Positions 779 through 9,472 of a DNA stretch of 64,000 nt are shown in pieces. The DNA lies in IMG/VR virus record IMGVR_UViG_3300034988_000024; one strand, 5' to 3'. The notes under the pieces are model-generated. The model had not been told where the DNA came from. It saw only the letters and a program-made list of their open reading frames with translations, and did not search any database. The position numbers were made by a program, and so were the translations under genes. Position 1 is the stretch's first letter, and each line of letters begins with the position of its first letter. The stretch comes from a virus.

Positions 779-851
779 GCCCCTGTGGTCCAACGGATAG
801 GGCACCGGCCTTCTAAGCCGGGTGGTGGGGGTTCGAATCCCTCCAGGGGTG
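779..851 (+). tRNA. tRNA-Arg (anticodon TCT)
   Basis: Cloverleaf: acceptor GCCCCTG/CAGGGGT, anticodon stem CCGGC/GCCGG, loop CTTCTAA, T-arm GGGGG-TTCGAAT-CCCTC. Confidence 0.75.
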
Positions 852-855
852 CTAT

Positions 856-929
856 GGACCCGTAGTTCAATTGGATAGAGCGCCTGGCTTCGGACCAGGA
901 TGTTGGGGGTTCGAGTCCCTCCGGGTCTG
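856..929 (+). tRNA. tRNA-Arg (anticodon TCG), tentative isotype
   Basis: Acceptor GGACCCG/CGGGTCT, D-loop AATTGGATA, anticodon stem CCTGG/CCAGG loop CTTCGGA, T-loop TTCGAGT. Confidence 0.65.
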
Positions 930-939
930 CTGAGTAATT

Positions 940-1011
940 GATCCCGTAGTGAAATGGATATCACGCAGCCCTGCGGAGGCTGAAATCCGAGTTCGAATCT
1001 CGGCGGGGTCG
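940..1011 (+). tRNA. tRNA-Arg (anticodon GCG), tentative
   Basis: Acceptor GATCCCG/CGGGGTC, D-stem GTGA/TCAC, anticodon stem CAGCC/GGCTG loop CTGCGGA, T-arm CCGAG-TTCGAAT-CTCGG. Confidence 0.6.
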
Positions 1012-1013
1012 CT

Positions 1014-1102
1014 TGCGGAGGGGAGACTATTGGCAGTCTCGCCAGTCTCATAAGCTGGTACCCTTAACCGGGTTGTGGGTTCGATTCCCATCTCCGCTAC
1101 CA
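1014..1102 (+). tRNA. type-II (long variable arm) tRNA with CAT anticodon, encoded CCA, A73; Leu-like body with Met/Ile-type anticodon
   Basis: D-stem AGAC/GTCT, anticodon stem CCAGT/GCTGG loop CTCATAA, 16-nt variable arm ACCC..GGGT, T-arm GTGGG-TTCGATT-CCCAT, 3' CTCCGCT-A-CCA. Confidence 0.5.
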
Positions 1103-1103
1103 A

Positions 1104-1174
1104 CCCAGTGACCTCGGGATGAGGAAGCGCGGCTCATATCCGCGTCTGCGAGAGTTCGATTCTCTCCGCTGGGA
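1104..1174 (+). tRNA. tRNA-Met/Ile2 (anticodon CAT), compact D-arm
   Basis: Acceptor CCCAGTG/CGCTGGG, anticodon stem CGCGG/CCGCG loop CTCATAT, T-arm GAGAG-TTCGATT-CTCTC. Confidence 0.55.
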
Positions 1175-1226
1175 CTGGCTCGTCACTGCCCCGACAGCCA
1201 ATCTCGGACGGCTTCAGCCGTCCACT

Positions 1227-1300
1227 CGGGCAGAGGGCTTGATGGTAAGCCGCCTGACTGGGGGTCAGGAGTAGTGCGGGTTCGACTCCCGCCTGCCCGA
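1227..1300 (+). tRNA. tRNA-Pro (anticodon GGG), tentative
   Basis: Acceptor CGGGCAG/CTGCCCG, D-stem GGCT/AGCC, anticodon stem CCTGA/TCAGG loop CTGGGGG, T-arm GCGGG-TTCGACT-CCCGC. Confidence 0.6.
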
Positions 1301-1325
1301 CCGGCCTTGGGCCTGGTCATATCAC

Positions 1326-3967: not shown

Positions 3968-4040
3968 GCCACCGTACCCCAACTGGCAGAGGACCGGCCT
4001 TAGGAGCCGGGAGCTGGGAGTTCGAATCTCCCCGGTGGCA
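3968..4040 (+). tRNA. tRNA-like gene, anticodon TAG (Leu-type) but with a short 5-nt variable loop; A73
   Basis: Acceptor GCCACCG/CGGTGGC, D-loop AACTGGCA, anticodon stem CCGGC/GCCGG loop CTTAGGA, T-arm GGGAG-TTCGAAT-CTCCC. Confidence 0.55.
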
Positions 4041-4054
4041 CCTTGAACGTGAAT

Positions 4055-4069
4055 ATAACATATGCTACC
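4055..4069 (+). promoter_or_regulatory. conserved palindromic motif ATAACATATGCTACC, about 45 nt upstream of the lipoprotein gene
   Basis: Member of the GTWRCATATGYTAC family recurring upstream of genes across the window. Confidence 0.5.
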
Positions 4070-4115
4070 TTCGTCAGAGTAAGCGGCTCACCCTGGAGCC
4101 AACGAAGGAGGATGC

Positions 4116-5165
4116 ATGAGGCCCCTTTTAGTGCTGCTACTTTCCTTGCTTTTTTCTGGTTGCGCTGAGGATCGGCGAATCTTTGAGGACCCTGATGGAG
4201 ATATCGATGGCGACGTGGTCACAGACGGCGATGCAGATGGCGACTCTGATGGCGACGGCGATAGCGACTCGGACTCCGATGGCGATGGCGATTCCGATGG
4301 CGATGGTGATGGCGACGGCGATGCGGATGGAGACGGAGACGGAGACGGGGACTGCGAAGAGCTGTGGTGTGTCGAGGAGTGGGTTACGCTCTACACTCGC
4401 GACTTGGCGTTCGAGGTTGGCTCGCCATCCCACCAGCCCGGGCACGAGGACGATGAAACGAGGCATCGGGTTTTTCTCACCTTCAACTTCGAGATTCAGA
4501 CGACCGAGGTGACGCAGTATCAGTTCGAGCGGCGGATGGGTTATGACCCGACAACGGAAGAGGGCTGTGACGGGAGCTGTCCCGTTGGCAGCGTCTCCTG
4601 GAACGAGGCGGCGGCTTACTGCAACGTCTTGTCCGATGAGGAGGGTGTCGAGCGTTGCTACAATTGCACCGGAACAGCACCCGACGTTTCTTGTAGCGTG
4701 AGTGCGACAATCGGCCGCATCGTCGACTGTGAGGGCTTCAGGCTTCCGACAGAGGCCGAATGGGAAGCGGCGGCACGCGGTGGAAATCATGAGCAGTCCA
4801 CCTATAACGGAACACTGACCGAAGAGCAGCTTGGGTGCGATAGTCCGAATGCTGTCTTGGACTCGATTGCGTGGTTCTGCGGGAACTCTGAACGAATGGT
4901 TCAGCCGGTAGCGCAGCTTGTCCCGAACGACTACGGTCTCTATGACATGCTCGGCAACCGTCTTGAGGCAGCCCACGACTGGTATGCCCCGTTCACTGCC
5001 GAAGACGTGACAGACCCAATGGGGCCTGAAACAGGCAGTCAAAGGGTGTACCGTGGCGGCTACGCCTGGGATGAAGGGCGTGGCTCAAGAGCTGCAAAGC
5101 GTTACCGACACGCCCAGGATTCCGACCGGAATCTCGGCTTCCGTCCAGCTCGGACGGCACCTTAG
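4116..5165 (+). CDS. secreted lipoprotein with (DGD)n acidic repeat and FGE-sulfatase (formylglycine-generating-enzyme-like) domain
   Basis: Lipobox LLLSLLFSGC; about 70 aa of DGD/DSD repeats; FGE-sulfatase signatures RLPTEAEWEAAARGG, GLYDMLGN, GFR; SD GAAGGAGG. Confidence 0.8.
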   Translation: MRPLLVLLLSLLFSGCAEDRRIFEDPDGDIDGDVVTDGDADGDSDGDGDSDSDSDGDGDSDGDGDGDGDADGDGDGDGDCEELWCVEEWVTLYTRDLAFEVGSPSHQPGHEDDETRHRVFLTFNFEIQTTEVTQYQFERRMGYDPTTEEGCDGSCPVGSVSWNEAAAYCNVLSDEEGVERCYNCTGTAPDVSCSVSATIGRIVDCEGFRLPTEAEWEAAARGGNHEQSTYNGTLTEEQLGCDSPNAVLDSIAWFCGNSERMVQPVAQLVPNDYGLYDMLGNRLEAAHDWYAPFTAEDVTDPMGPETGSQRVYRGGYAWDEGRGSRAAKRYRHAQDSDRNLGFRPARTAP

Positions 5166-5175
5166 ATCACAGACA

Positions 5176-5211
5176 TGTCACACTGCTCTTAATAGCTAAG
5201 GTCAGTGTGAC
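5176..5211 (+). terminator. hairpin (GTCACACTG/CAGTGTGAC, 9-bp stem) after the lipoprotein gene; weak U-tract
   Basis: Inverted repeat seen directly; T-run poor, so uncertain. Confidence 0.3.
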
Positions 5212-5215
5212 TTCG

Positions 5216-5287
5216 GCCCACGTACCCCAATTGGCAGAGGACCGGCCCGAGGCGCCGGAGGTGGGGGTTCGACTCCCCCCGTGGGCA
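5216..5287 (+). tRNA. tRNA-like gene, anticodon GAG (Leu-type), short variable loop, C33 in anticodon loop; A73
   Basis: Acceptor GCCCACG/CGTGGGC, same D-arm family as 3968, anticodon stem CCGGC/GCCGG loop CCGAGGC, T-arm GGGGG-TTCGACT-CCCCC. Confidence 0.5.
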
Positions 5288-5342
5288 CCGGGTTTATCTC
5301 GGGGTGAGGCGTGGCACGATGTATAATCATGCTGCGTCTTTG

Positions 5343-5429
5343 CGTGAGTGGTGAAATGGTAGACACGCCAGCCTCAGGAGCTGGTGGCCCTTAGAGGCCG
5401 TGGAGGTTCGACTCCTCTCTCACGCACCA
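5343..5429 (+). tRNA. tRNA-Leu (anticodon CAG), canonical type II with long variable arm and encoded CCA
   Basis: Acceptor GCGTGAG/CTCACGC, D-loop GTGAAATGGTAGAC, anticodon stem CCAGC/GCTGG loop CTCAGGA, variable arm TGGCCCTTAGAGGCCG. Confidence 0.75.
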
Positions 5430-5447
5430 GGGTAGAAAGATAGTGTT

Positions 5448-5648
5448 ATGACTTCGGAACGATACGAAAGGGCTGACGGTGAAGGCACGATCAAGCACGG
5501 CCCCTGTGAAAAGTGTGGGGCTCTGAAGTCGAAGGTGACTCACCGATTCGATCACTATGCAGACATGGTTTGCGAGAACGGTCATCACTGGGTGGCTGAC
5601 GTGAGGAGAGAAAATGTCACAAGTGAGTCAGTTTCTGGACACGCTTGA
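5448..5648 (+). CDS. small hypothetical protein (66 aa, CxxC...C)
   Basis: ORF right after tRNA; weak RBS. Confidence 0.3.
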   Translation: MTSERYERADGEGTIKHGPCEKCGALKSKVTHRFDHYADMVCENGHHWVADVRRENVTSESVSGHA

Positions 5649-5910
5649 ATTCGATCAGTGGTTGGATCGGTCCTTTGGCGATACGAGGTCAGTCAAGACC
5701 TGGCTGGCTTCGGGGCACTGCGCCCTAAAAGTACCGATCAATCAGCGCTGTTCTCGTTACGTCCCGGGCCATCGGGTCGCGGCGCTTGCAGCTTTCCTGC
5801 TTCCCTTTGCGACAGGATATTTCGCCTGGCGCCGCTCTGAAGGGAACGCAGGCTGGACAGCTCTCGGAGTCGCCTCTGGCTTCGTCGTCATCGAGGCCGC
5901 TCGTCGTTAG
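5614..5910 (+). CDS. hypothetical small membrane protein
   Basis: Hydrophobic C-terminal stretch AALAAFLLPFATGYFAW; overlaps the previous ORF. Confidence 0.35.
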   Translation: MSQVSQFLDTLEFDQWLDRSFGDTRSVKTWLASGHCALKVPINQRCSRYVPGHRVAALAAFLLPFATGYFAWRRSEGNAGWTALGVASGFVVIEAARR

Positions 5911-5924
5911 ATATATCGTGGTAT

Positions 5925-6007
5925 GCCGCTGTGGTGAAATGGTAGACACGCTTGGTTGAGGGCCAGGTGGGCGAAAGCCCGTGGAGGTTCGACTCCTCTC
6001 GGCGGCA
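5925..6007 (+). tRNA. tRNA-Leu (anticodon GAG), type II with long variable arm
   Basis: Acceptor GCCGCTG/CGGCGGC, anticodon stem CTTGG/CCAGG loop TTGAGGG, variable arm TGGGCGAAAGCCCG, T-arm GGAGG-TTCGACT-CCTCT. Confidence 0.7.
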
Positions 6008-6184
6008 CTAAATGTGGCGGGTGATCATTGTAATAATCCTGGGGATTATTGATAGTGGCTCAGACTACAGTTGTGAAGAGGCGTGTGGGGTGCTCGATGC
6101 TGAGCTGCTCAGGGTTGAGGGATGCTACTGCATCTGCAAGGACCCGCTGCATAAGTTCAGGGTGAGGATCCCAGATTGTCAGAT

Positions 6185-6260
6185 GCGCGTCTACCCTAAC
6201 TGGTAAAGGGACCAGGTTTAAACCCTGGGGATGAGGGTTCGACTCCCTCGGCGCGTACCA
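6185..6260 (+). tRNA. tRNA-like gene, anticodon TAA (Leu-UUR type) but short variable loop; encoded CCA, A73
   Basis: Acceptor GCGCGTC/GGCGCGT, D-loop AACTGGTAAA, anticodon stem CCAGG/CCTGG loop TTTAAAC, T-arm GAGGG-TTCGACT-CCCTC. Confidence 0.55.
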
Positions 6261-6277
6261 AGAAAAAGGGGTGAGGT

Positions 6278-6526
6278 ATGGCGACGAAGAGAGACGACTA
6301 CTACGACAAGACACCGCTGGAGGTGTTGGAGCAGGCCATGTGGCGACCGCACCTGGTATGCACTCGAAAGCTGCTCGGTCGTCATGGGACTCCTGGCGAG
6401 GTCATTGAGGGCTTGAGTGAACCCGCTCGAAAGAAGCTCAGGCAGCTCAAGAGCGACGACATCGCGAATATCCGTCCAGACATCGCAACGATGTTCGTTG
6501 GGACGGTTCCACAGCATTTGCTGTGA
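6278..6526 (+). CDS. hypothetical protein (82 aa)
   Basis: SD AAGGGGTGAGG upstream of ATG. Confidence 0.5.
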   Translation: MATKRDDYYDKTPLEVLEQAMWRPHLVCTRKLLGRHGTPGEVIEGLSEPARKKLRQLKSDDIANIRPDIATMFVGTVPQHLL

Positions 6527-6530
6527 TTTT

Positions 6531-6607
6531 GGCGCCGTAACCCAATTTGGCAGAGGTCCCGCCTCAAAAGCGGGCGGTTGGGGGTTCGATTCCCCCCGGC
6601 GCTACCA
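6531..6607 (+). tRNA. tRNA-like gene, anticodon CAA (Leu-type) but short variable loop; encoded CCA, A73
   Basis: Acceptor GGCGCCG/CGGCGCT, D-loop AATTTGGCA, anticodon stem CCCGC/GCGGG loop CTCAAAA, T-arm GGGGG-TTCGATT-CCCCC. Confidence 0.55.
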
Positions 6608-6717: not shown

Positions 6718-7617
6718 ATGCAAGAAATTACACTAGAGCTGACAGCTCAGTGTCCTCATGACTGTCAACACTGTTCGTCAAAATCTGGCCCTGAGGAGCT
6801 TAAGCGGATCAGCCCAGAGACAGCCAAGCGGCTGATGGACGAGGCGGTCGCGCATGGCGCCAAGAGGATAAATTTCAGCGGCGGCGAGCCGTTGATGCAT
6901 ACGTTCTTTTGGGAGATAGCCAGCGAGGCAGCGAAGCGAGGATTTGAGATCCACGTTTATACGTCGGGAACCGTCCTGAGGGCTGGGCTGAAAGAGCCTC
7001 TCTCTCAGAGGCAGGCTGCGAAACTCAAGGAGCTTGGCGCTGTCGTGGCCTTCAATGTCCTGTCTGCTGACTACCGTGTTCACGACATGTTGACGAACTC
7101 GAAGGGGAGCTTCTGGCGTGCGGCGCAATCAGTCATTGTCTGTCGCGAGTCAGAGGTTACGGTCGACGTCAACTTTGTTCCCACGAAGTACAACGACAAT
7201 GAGTTGTGGGAGATGATACCCGCTGCAACCAAGGTCGGTGTTCGTCAGATCAATGTCCTTCGACTCGTCTCTCAGGGAAGGGCTATCGTTTCCAAGCTGG
7301 ATATGCCCAAGTGGGACATAGAGGCCTTCGCTCATCGAGCCTTGGCAGGGTATACGACGAAGGTGAACCTCGGGGCGCCCTTCAATCATGCTGTTCCTGT
7401 GAGGCAGCAGAAGAGCTGTTCTGCGATTGAAAAAATCGTTGTAACGCCTGAAGGTATCCTTCTCCCCTGCGAGGTATTCAAGGGGAAGAGGGGCGACTTC
7501 GAGGGTCCGATGACGATTCAAGAAGCGCTGGAGTCGAGACCGTTCAACAGGTTGCGGCTGTGGCACGAAGAAAACCCGAACCGCTGCCCGGTTCATCACG
7601 CGGATGACTGGCCATGA
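6718..7617 (+). CDS. radical SAM protein
   Basis: CxxxCxxC motif CPHDCQHC, SAM-binding-like FSGGEPL; Cys-containing C-terminus (possible auxiliary cluster). Confidence 0.75.
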   Translation: MQEITLELTAQCPHDCQHCSSKSGPEELKRISPETAKRLMDEAVAHGAKRINFSGGEPLMHTFFWEIASEAAKRGFEIHVYTSGTVLRAGLKEPLSQRQAAKLKELGAVVAFNVLSADYRVHDMLTNSKGSFWRAAQSVIVCRESEVTVDVNFVPTKYNDNELWEMIPAATKVGVRQINVLRLVSQGRAIVSKLDMPKWDIEAFAHRALAGYTTKVNLGAPFNHAVPVRQQKSCSAIEKIVVTPEGILLPCEVFKGKRGDFEGPMTIQEALESRPFNRLRLWHEENPNRCPVHHADDWP

Positions 7618-8941: not shown

Positions 8942-9472
8942 ATGACTGAAAAAGTGCTCGTTTTGGACCAGGGGTATCAACCCCATCGCATCGTGAGCTG
9001 GCAACGCGCCATCGTGATGATTTTTCGCCAGGTCGCAGAGGTCGTCGAAGAGTACGACGAGGACATTGCTTCGGCGACGTTCGTCATGAAGATGCCGGCT
9101 GTAGTGCGTTTGCTCAAGCGAATCACCAGGCGTCGCGCGGTGAAATTCAGCCGCATGAACGTGCTGCTCCGTGACGGGTGGAAGTGTCAGTATTGCGGTG
9201 AAAAGAAAAAGACCAAGCAGCTCAACTACGACCACGTTGTTCCGAAGTCGCAGGGCGGAAGAACCACCTGGGAGAACATCGTTACGAGCTGCTACGACTG
9301 CAACCACAAGAAGGCTGGCAGGACTCCGGAACAAGCGAGGATGCAGCTCCTCAAGAAGCCGGTTAAGCCGAAGAGCCTCCCGCTCGTGGCCTTCCACGTC
9401 GACGAGGCAGACTCGATTCCTGAAGCGTGGGCCAACTGGCTGTACTGGCATGGCAAGCTGGTCGAGGACTGA
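8942..9472 (+). CDS. HNH endonuclease
   Basis: CQYCG...LNYDHVVPKSQGG...WENIVTSCYDCNHKK (HNH with zinc-binding Cys pairs). Confidence 0.8.
   Translation: MTEKVLVLDQGYQPHRIVSWQRAIVMIFRQVAEVVEEYDEDIASATFVMKMPAVVRLLKRITRRRAVKFSRMNVLLRDGWKCQYCGEKKKTKQLNYDHVVPKSQGGRTTWENIVTSCYDCNHKKAGRTPEQARMQLLKKPVKPKSLPLVAFHVDEADSIPEAWANWLYWHGKLVED

Follow-up and report, generated by a model that had tools for sequence, protein, structure and literature searches.

Leucine tRNA genes of the window

The genes considered here are a group of tRNA genes with leucine anticodons in the viral record IMGVR_UViG_3300034988_000024 of IMG/VR, a stretch of 64,000 nt that is referred to below, at its full length, as the window. 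Thirteen tRNA genes were called in this 64-kb window by ARAGORN, and it is apparent that six of them are tRNALeu genes, all of which lie within positions 3968–6607. Four of the six are only 74–77 nt in length and have variable loops of 4 or 5 nt (type I), and two carry the long variable arm of type-II tRNAs, defined as a variable stem-loop of more than 10 nt.

The short genes, all on the + strand, were called by ARAGORN at 3968–4042 (anticodon UAG), 5216–5289 (GAG), 6185–6260 (UAA) and 6531–6607 (CAA). The tRNALeu(UAG) gene, annotated here as 3968–4040, has G37, the variable loop GAGCU, a G1-C72 pair and A73. The tRNALeu(GAG) gene (5216–5287) has C33 rather than U33, G37, the variable loop AGGU and A73. 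In the tRNALeu(UAA) gene (6185–6257, with an encoded CCA at 6258–6260), A37, the variable loop GGAU, G1-U72, A73 and a full 4-bp D-stem are found, and in the tRNALeu(CAA) gene (6531–6604, CCA at 6605–6607), A37, the variable loop CGGUU, G1-U72 and A73. The 3-70 pairs of the UAG, GAG, UAA and CAA genes are C-G, C-G, G-C and C-G, respectively.

The genes were also scored with the Rfam tRNA model, RF00005, for which membership requires a cloverleaf covariance score no lower than the gathering threshold of 29 bits and an anticodon lying in a 7-nt loop. Scores of 61.2 (UAG), 59.1 (GAG), 61.4 (UAA) and 55.2 bits (CAA) were obtained, with E values of approximately 1e–9 to 1e–10. The RF00005 alignment puts the four anticodon triplets at positions 34–36, in 7-nt loops closed by perfect 5-bp anticodon stems; the acceptor and T stems are likewise perfect in all four genes. 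A preliminary description, made from the letters of the sequence, had reported four tRNA-like genes with these anticodons, together with their short variable loops, A73, anticodon stems and loops, and all of these features were recovered by ARAGORN and Rfam. The covariance models keep the anticodon register that it proposed and score none of the genes as a pseudo-tRNA. Its observation of G37 in the CUN readers and A37 in the UUR readers also held, A37 being found in both the UAA and CAA genes. The shared D-arm that it described, TACCCCAAYTGGCAGAGG, is exact in the UAG and GAG genes and occurs as the variants TACCCTAACTGGTAAAGG in the UAA gene and TAACCCAATTTGGCAGAGG in the CAA gene. Absent from that description are C33 of the GAG gene, G1-U72 and the encoded CCA of the UAA and CAA genes, and a 1-nt deficit in the D-arm/position-26 region of the UAG and GAG genes.

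The UAG and GAG genes are the closest paralogues among the four, with 82% identity, a common anticodon stem (CCGGC/GCCGG) and a shared D-arm deletion. On these grounds they resemble paralogues of recent origin, set apart by a switch of anticodon, a change that would be cheap if the synthetase ignores the anticodon. A scan for promoters and terminators revealed no enrichment of either.

The two long-arm genes reported in the preliminary description as proper type-II tRNALeu genes, including a second GAG gene, were found as well, both on the + strand. They are a canonical tRNALeu(CAG) at 5342–5426 (ARAGORN 5342–5429; Rfam 56.0 bits), with the same D-loop motif, AAAUGGUAGA, and a canonical tRNALeu(GAG) at 5925–6007 (ARAGORN 5925–6008; Rfam 48.5 bits), which is redundant with the short GAG gene. 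Their variable arms measure 13–15 nt, and their D-arm layout is that of the short genes.

Leucine codon usage was determined for 35 large open reading frames (ORFs) of the window, and was 42% CTC, 25% CTG, 16% CTT, 9% TTG, 6.5% CTA and 1% TTA. Thus CTC and CTT, which are read by GAG, make up 58% of the leucine codons, and two GAG genes serve the majority codons. The short and long-arm genes jointly cover all six leucine codons, including the near-unused TTA. These results fit a phage that carries a self-sufficient leucine decoding set rather than a top-up for rare A/U-ending codons. The preliminary description had suggested that atypical tRNAs might supply such rare codons; the part of that suggestion concerning extra phage leucine isoacceptors is favoured here, but its focus on rare codons does not agree with the usage observed.

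A family of short-arm leucine tRNAs

IMG/VR and a set of bacterial genomes, one for each species, were scanned with a degenerate 19-nt D-arm motif, GTACCCNAAYTGGYARAGG. Approximately half of the genome matches fell in non-tRNA DNA by chance, as is expected for 15 specified bases in 596 Gb. The motif-bearing tRNAs that were recovered, from 4 viral and 53 bacterial loci, were without exception short-armed and equipped with a leucine anticodon (59/59). All six leucine anticodons (CAA, UAG, UAA, GAG, CAG and AAG) were seen among them; these span two unconnected codon boxes, and leucine is their sole common property. When up to three mismatches to the motif were allowed, 82 leucine and 3 non-leucine tRNAs were obtained among the 490 tRNAs of the fetched loci. 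The loci were picked by the D-arm motif and the anticodon was left unselected, and the association of motif and leucine anticodon is therefore real evidence. An initial guess that the D-arm was tRNAGln- or tRNATyr-like was dropped, given the exclusive link of the motif to leucine anticodons. An exact 26-nt pattern of D-arm and anticodon stem gave no matches in viral contigs, and a pattern specific to the GGA variant of the window gave three metagenome-contig loci, none with a tRNA, which were set aside as chance matches.

The D-arm signature of the family reads U8 A9 N10 C11 C12 C13, A14 A15 Y Y G18 G19 Y A G, A22 G23 G24 N25. It is exact in the UAG and GAG genes of the window save for one missing nucleotide at 25/26, the junction of the D-stem with position 26, which leaves both genes 1 nt short of the family consensus. 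In the UAA gene U13 and A21 are found, and in the CAA gene A10 together with an additional U in the loop.

An alignment of 60 family sequences, from which the window was left out, has 98.8% of its cells paired and compensatory changes in 18 of 20 pairs, a level of covariation that was reached by none of 500 shuffles and was not approached in any slid register. A covariance model, R1, was built from these 60 members. The window genes scored 77.7 (UAG, the window's best), 72.9 (CAA), 71.1 (GAG) and 69.8 bits (UAA) with R1, as compared to 56.7 bits for the next tRNA of the window and 38–40 bits for its type-II tRNALeu genes. By these scores, the four genes are members of the short-arm tRNALeu family. 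They are also the most divergent members seen, with identities of 64–82% among themselves and of no more than approximately 81% to any other member. Membership also calls for a variable loop of 4–6 nt in place of a stem-loop of 10 nt or more. Of the variable loops in 90 family sequences, 74 measure 5 nt, 14 measure 6 nt and 2 measure 4 nt; the homologues of the window genes are thus short-looped like them, and the long-armed homologues that the preliminary description had named as contrary evidence did not appear. In the same arrays the long arm is kept in 20 of 21 tRNASer and 12 of 13 tRNATyr genes, which fits the arm being dispensable for leucyl-tRNA synthetase (LeuRS) alone.

Family genes were found in three genomic contexts. 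Solitary chromosomal genes are present in Actinomycetota (Klenkia, Kribbella, Catenulispora, Frankiaceae, Acidimicrobiales and Iamia). Genes within dense tRNA arrays were found in Planctomycetota, Armatimonadota, metagenome-assembled genomes (MAGs) of Alphaproteobacteria, Omnitrophota, Polyangiaceae and Acetatifactor. Phage contigs are the third context; one viral contig (L001) has four family genes consecutively (UAA, UAG, CAA and GAG) and no long-arm tRNALeu among its 25 tRNAs. C33, at window position 5248 in the GAG gene, was also observed at loci L014, L019, L023, L037, L050, L059, L064, L067, L089, L091, L102 and L104, as well as in one family UAA gene and in the long-arm tRNALeu(GAG) of the Polyangiaceae array (L108, position 3173).

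Cultured phages, too, have members of the family. When one actinobacterial member was used as a blastn query, 295 GenBank phage records were matched, and in 111 of these the match spans at least 80% of the tRNA; most of these matches are annotated as tRNALeu. With R1, three adjacent members were identified in the Bxz1-like Mycobacterium phage Cali (82, 66 and 64 bits), one in Streptomyces phage Francob (71 bits), one in Pseudomonas phage PPSC2 (80 bits), and three (79, 73 and 69 bits) in Escherichia phage mistaenkt, a FelixO1-like member of the Ounavirinae that was grown on E. coli K-12. The mistaenkt stretch examined has no long-arm tRNALeu, and two tRNASer with long arms; no family member was found in E. 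coli genomes. Phages of Salmonella, Shigella and Erwinia related to this coliphage gave partial matches. The tRNALeu genes of Cali, mistaenkt, PPSC2 and Francob resemble those of the window in their D-arm/D-loop signature, A73 and short variable loop, and cultured phages likewise carry several leucine anticodons per array, often adjacent. The window differs from them in that the D-arm of two genes is closed by GGA rather than GGGA and in that two variable loops are of 4 nt. The classical case, that of phage T5, is a long-arm tRNALeu.

A tRNALeu(UAG) with a short variable loop has been reported from tRNA clusters that Mycobacterium mucogenicum and M. phocaicum acquired horizontally (Behra et al. 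2019, PMC6582537). That cluster is dense and mobile, has HNH endonuclease genes and is thought to be phage-derived (PMC6582537), and the array of the window likewise has an HNH gene nearby. The mycobacterial gene is mentioned in passing and sits in a bacterial chromosome (PMC6582537), whereas those of the window are on a phage. It is apparent from these records that short-arm tRNALeu is a known, routinely annotated and little discussed kind of tRNA, and that finding it is ordinary. The window genes should be annotated as tRNALeu (UAG, GAG, UAA and CAA), as standard pipelines do for their relatives.

Leucine identity and alternative explanations

The identity elements of tRNALeu for the LeuRS of E. 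coli are A73, A14, A15-U48, G18G19/A20a and the D/T-loop pairs, with no requirement for the anticodon or for the long arm (Giege & Eriani 2023, PMC9976931), and a minimal tRNALeu stripped of its anticodon arm as well as its long arm was still charged (PMC9976931). The set checked here comprised U8:A14, the A15-U48 Levitt pair, G18G19 with A20a, U54:A58, G18:U55 and G19:C56. As judged by their presence in the sequence, U8, A14, A15, GG followed by YA, U48 and the T-loop UUCGAnU occur in all four short genes, as does A73, and every known LeuRS determinant is accounted for, although G18G19 may be displaced in the UAG and GAG genes by their 1-nt shortening. Conservation of these positions in the family is nearly complete (A73 in 88/90, U48 in 88/90 and A14A15 in 90/90 sequences). 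Among type-I tRNALeu, 92 of 102 have the D-loop AA(N1-3)GGYAGA, as do 10 of 12 type-II tRNALeu but only approximately 4% of other tRNAs.

A natural type-I tRNALeu(CAA) of Streptomyces coelicolor is leucylated by the single LeuRS of that organism (Fan 2019, NAR, PMC6614811). The same tRNA is charged by human mitochondrial LeuRS, and its gene could not be deleted from the genome (PMC6614811). It resembles the window genes in having a variable loop of 5 nt, A73 and U8:A14 and in coexisting with long-arm leucine isoacceptors (PMC6614811). It differs from them in being a single, chromosomal and apparently essential isoacceptor, whereas in the window four anticodons occur on a phage, two of them in genes with 4-nt variable loops. 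The variable loop of the S. coelicolor tRNA, ACAGC (PMC6614811), is nearly the ACAGU seen here in actinobacterial members of the family, and this tRNA probably belongs to the same sequence family as the window genes. Animal mitochondrial tRNALeu is also of type I, with its identity on A73 and A14 and no long arm (PMC9976931); it is likened to the window genes by these features and not by sequence, has a degenerate AT-rich structure and is served by a dedicated synthetase. The preliminary description had taken the long arm to be required by bacterial LeuRS. That premise is wrong for both enzymes just described, those of E. coli and S. coelicolor, and it is because of it that the four genes had looked paradoxical.

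Taken together, these data make it likely that the four genes work as leucine isoacceptors belonging to a known, widespread type-I tRNALeu family, probably charged with leucine by the host LeuRS. The family travels in the tRNA arrays of phages and in tRNA-array islands of bacteria, and is chromosomal in Actinomycetota. The parts that LeuRS reads (A73, U8:A14, the Levitt pair A15-U48, a leucine-type D-loop, AAYUGGYAG(A), with G18G19, and U54, U55, C56 and A58 of the T-loop) are all kept, and only the long arm, which bacterial LeuRS can do without, is lost. Since the determinants are kept and the arm is not needed, the LeuRS of the host would be expected to charge the four tRNAs with leucine. 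Together with its two long-arm genes, the phage would thereby gain a complete set for all six leucine codons. The analysis establishes that the genes are real, that they are family members, that the family is tied exclusively to leucine anticodons and that each known LeuRS determinant is present; from this we infer both the leucylation of these tRNAs in the host of this phage and its benefit to the phage.

Several observations weigh against this explanation. In vitro, the S. coelicolor type-I tRNALeu was not charged by the LeuRS of E. coli, a permissive LSD domain being needed (PMC6614811). Leucylation is host-dependent for this reason, and charging of the window tRNAs would hang on the LeuRS of the phage's host. 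In addition, the Streptomyces type-I tRNA retained little activity once its 5-nt variable loop had been reduced to 4 nt (PMC6614811). This result applies to the GAG and UAA genes of the window, which have the only 4-nt variable loops among the 90 family sequences; C33 and a shortened D region are further features of the GAG gene. The minimum-free-energy fold of the UAA gene is a clean cloverleaf, but such single-sequence folding misses the D-arm in three of the four short genes, and the z-scores (–0.7 to –1.9) are not significant. Finally, the loci were selected by their D-arm, and the ratio of type-I to type-II tRNALeu in them is not a population estimate.

The short variable loops raise the question of decay, that is, whether one or more of the four genes, and above all the GAG gene, is a non-charged pseudogene, a decoy or a source of tRNA fragments. 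The 4-nt loops are peculiar to the window, the corresponding deletion nearly abolished charging in Streptomyces, and the short GAG gene duplicates the type-II GAG gene at 5925–6007. U33 is near-universal in elongator tRNAs, and the GAG gene departs from it. However, C33 recurs in 9 of 20 family GAG genes and in 4 of 18 UAG genes from unrelated taxa, and is therefore a lineage trait and not a lesion. The perfect stems, the Rfam scores of 55–61 bits, the family-model scores of 70–78 bits and the identity of the sequence in two independent assemblies also speak against decay, which is considered quite improbable. Nothing points to decoys for anticodon nucleases, as the preliminary description had proposed. 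Nor is there support for its other proposal, a non-canonical identity with a different amino acid or a phage-adapted synthetase, here also taken to cover a non-cognate synthetase and reassignment or deliberate mistranslation of the codons. There are precedents in the yeast mitochondrial tRNAThr(UAG) and the Ashbya mitochondrial tRNAAla(UAG), which read CUN (PMC7609411), and the window does hold a UAA-suppressor tRNA and other odd tRNAs. On the other hand, the four genes have none of the marks of such an identity (G3:U70, G73, an 8-nt anticodon loop or a long arm) and all of those of LeuRS. One tRNA body shared by six leucine anticodons demands an enzyme that is blind to the anticodon (that for Ala, Ser or Leu), and only the leucine marks are present. 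Moreover, no match to a synthetase family was found in the 20 largest ORFs of the window, which include all those above 465 aa, and, read with the standard code, the ORFs are long and uninterrupted. Charging with any other amino acid is thus extremely improbable.

A further proposal concerns the reason for which such tRNAs are kept. Armless leucine tRNAs may accept leucine and yet be retained because they evade host nucleases or toxins that recognize or cut the long arm, or other host-specific features, of type-II tRNALeu, so that leucine decoding would outlast destruction of the host pool. This adds a selective reason to leucine charging by the host LeuRS and does not replace it. Codon supply alone fails to explain the full leucine set, because the UAA reader serves a codon of 1% use. 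It is also the case that only tRNALeu drops its arm in these arrays, tRNASer and tRNATyr retaining theirs, and that a coliphage has three family members where E. coli genomes have none. In mammals, type-II tRNAs are targeted by Schlafens. Cutters of the variable loop of type-II tRNAs do exist, among them Septu (PMC13096335) and the PtuAB of Retron-Eco7 (PMC12673091), both acting on tRNATyr, and VapC52, which cleaves variable and anticodon loops (PMC13273310). A nuclease aimed at the arm of bacterial tRNALeu was not found in the literature searched, however, and the window retains two long-arm tRNALeu that would be vulnerable to one. Members held by Actinomycetota as ordinary chromosomal genes indicate that a short arm needs no defence context, and no feature of the window ties the tRNAs to a defence or anti-defence gene. 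Evasion of this kind is accordingly regarded as unlikely, though attractive. The broader proposal that tRNALeu is the only type-II family able to shed its arm and yet keep its synthetase, and that short-arm tRNALeu is an unrecognized general anti-defence device, is likewise regarded as unlikely. Alternatively, short-arm tRNALeu may be usable only with a permissive host LeuRS, and would then possibly be a determinant of host range.

The assignment of the four genes as leucine isoacceptors places them in a wider pattern, in which one lineage of short-arm tRNALeu extends across phages of very different hosts and mobile arrays, while tRNASer and tRNATyr keep their arms. The only enzymology available has E. 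coli LeuRS refusing one such tRNA, and yet three of them are found in a phage that was grown on E. coli K-12. The purpose of phage tRNA arrays would be clarified by learning which LeuRS enzymes accept short-arm tRNALeu and whether the lack of an arm protects from tRNA-cleaving defences.

Neighbouring features of the window

The window is approximately 57% G+C and looks like part of a large uncultured phage. Its genes include an endolysin-like gene (PG_binding_1 and Amidase_2), DNA methyltransferases, an HNH endonuclease, radical-SAM and NUDIX genes, and many ORFs without a family match. An exact-protein look-up returned only two contigs, from Logan assemblies of different sequencing runs, both 100% identical to the window, which leaves no variation to compare. 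A DNA relative was not found among GenBank phages, tblastn searches with two large window proteins gave no match to GenBank phages, and relatives of the downstream radical-SAM protein were not found in viral contigs.

The tRNALeu genes are part of a larger array, which also takes in positions 1–51, with a truncated tRNA at the window edge, and 779–1302 (+). The other tRNAs of the array are three tRNAArg (UCU, UCG and GCG), two with the anticodon CAU, and tRNAPro(GGG). An HNH endonuclease gene is at approximately 8942–9472, and NUDIX and radical-SAM genes are interspersed. Inside the tRNA cluster, at 4116–5165 (+), is an FGE-sulfatase (SUMF1-like) family gene whose product has an N-terminus resembling that of a lipoprotein and a long linker of Asp-Gly repeats. 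The best named homologues of this FGE-family gene, with approximately 47–50% identity, are from MAGs of Myxococcota, Deltaproteobacteria and Lentisphaeria, a weak hint as to the host.

One of the CAU tRNAs, at 1014–1102 (+), was called by ARAGORN and falls below the Rfam gathering score. Its length is 89 nt, its variable arm is long, its D-stem has 5 bp, and U1 and U72 are mismatched. The adjoining CAU tRNA at 1104–1175 is also atypical. A tRNA(CAU) at 5107–5190 of locus L018 has the anticodon arm CGCCAGTCTCATAANCTGG, which is nearly that of the gene at 1014–1102, and locus L089 has another long-arm CAU tRNA (5191–5276) with a different anticodon arm.

A tRNA with the anticodon UUA, that is, a UAA suppressor, lies at 15719–15792 on the – strand (Rfam 55.7 bits). 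It has A8 rather than U8, and its CCA is encoded. It is directly downstream of a PTH2-family peptidyl-tRNA hydrolase gene at 15814–16143 (–). TAA is still the stop codon in 10 of the 35 large ORFs, and the window therefore does not look recoded. A 984-aa ORF at 18141–21095 (+) has the major vault protein domains MVP_shoulder (E value 6e–15), Vault_3 and Vault_4, a protein family that is unexpected on a phage-like contig.

Two further observations were made in the arrays of other loci. Those of the Alphaproteobacteria MAGs contain type-II tRNAs with Lys (CUU), Asn (GUU) and Ile (UAU) anticodons, the last with a leucine-type D-loop (L014, 1834–1917; L044, 4423–4510, 5117–5212 and 6826–6910; equivalents in L115 and L125); it is possible that these are mistranslating or otherwise non-canonical tRNAs. 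A tmRNA was observed inside the tRNA array of two IMG/VR phage contigs with type-I tRNALeu, at 7067–7455 of L003 and 1084–1472 of L005.

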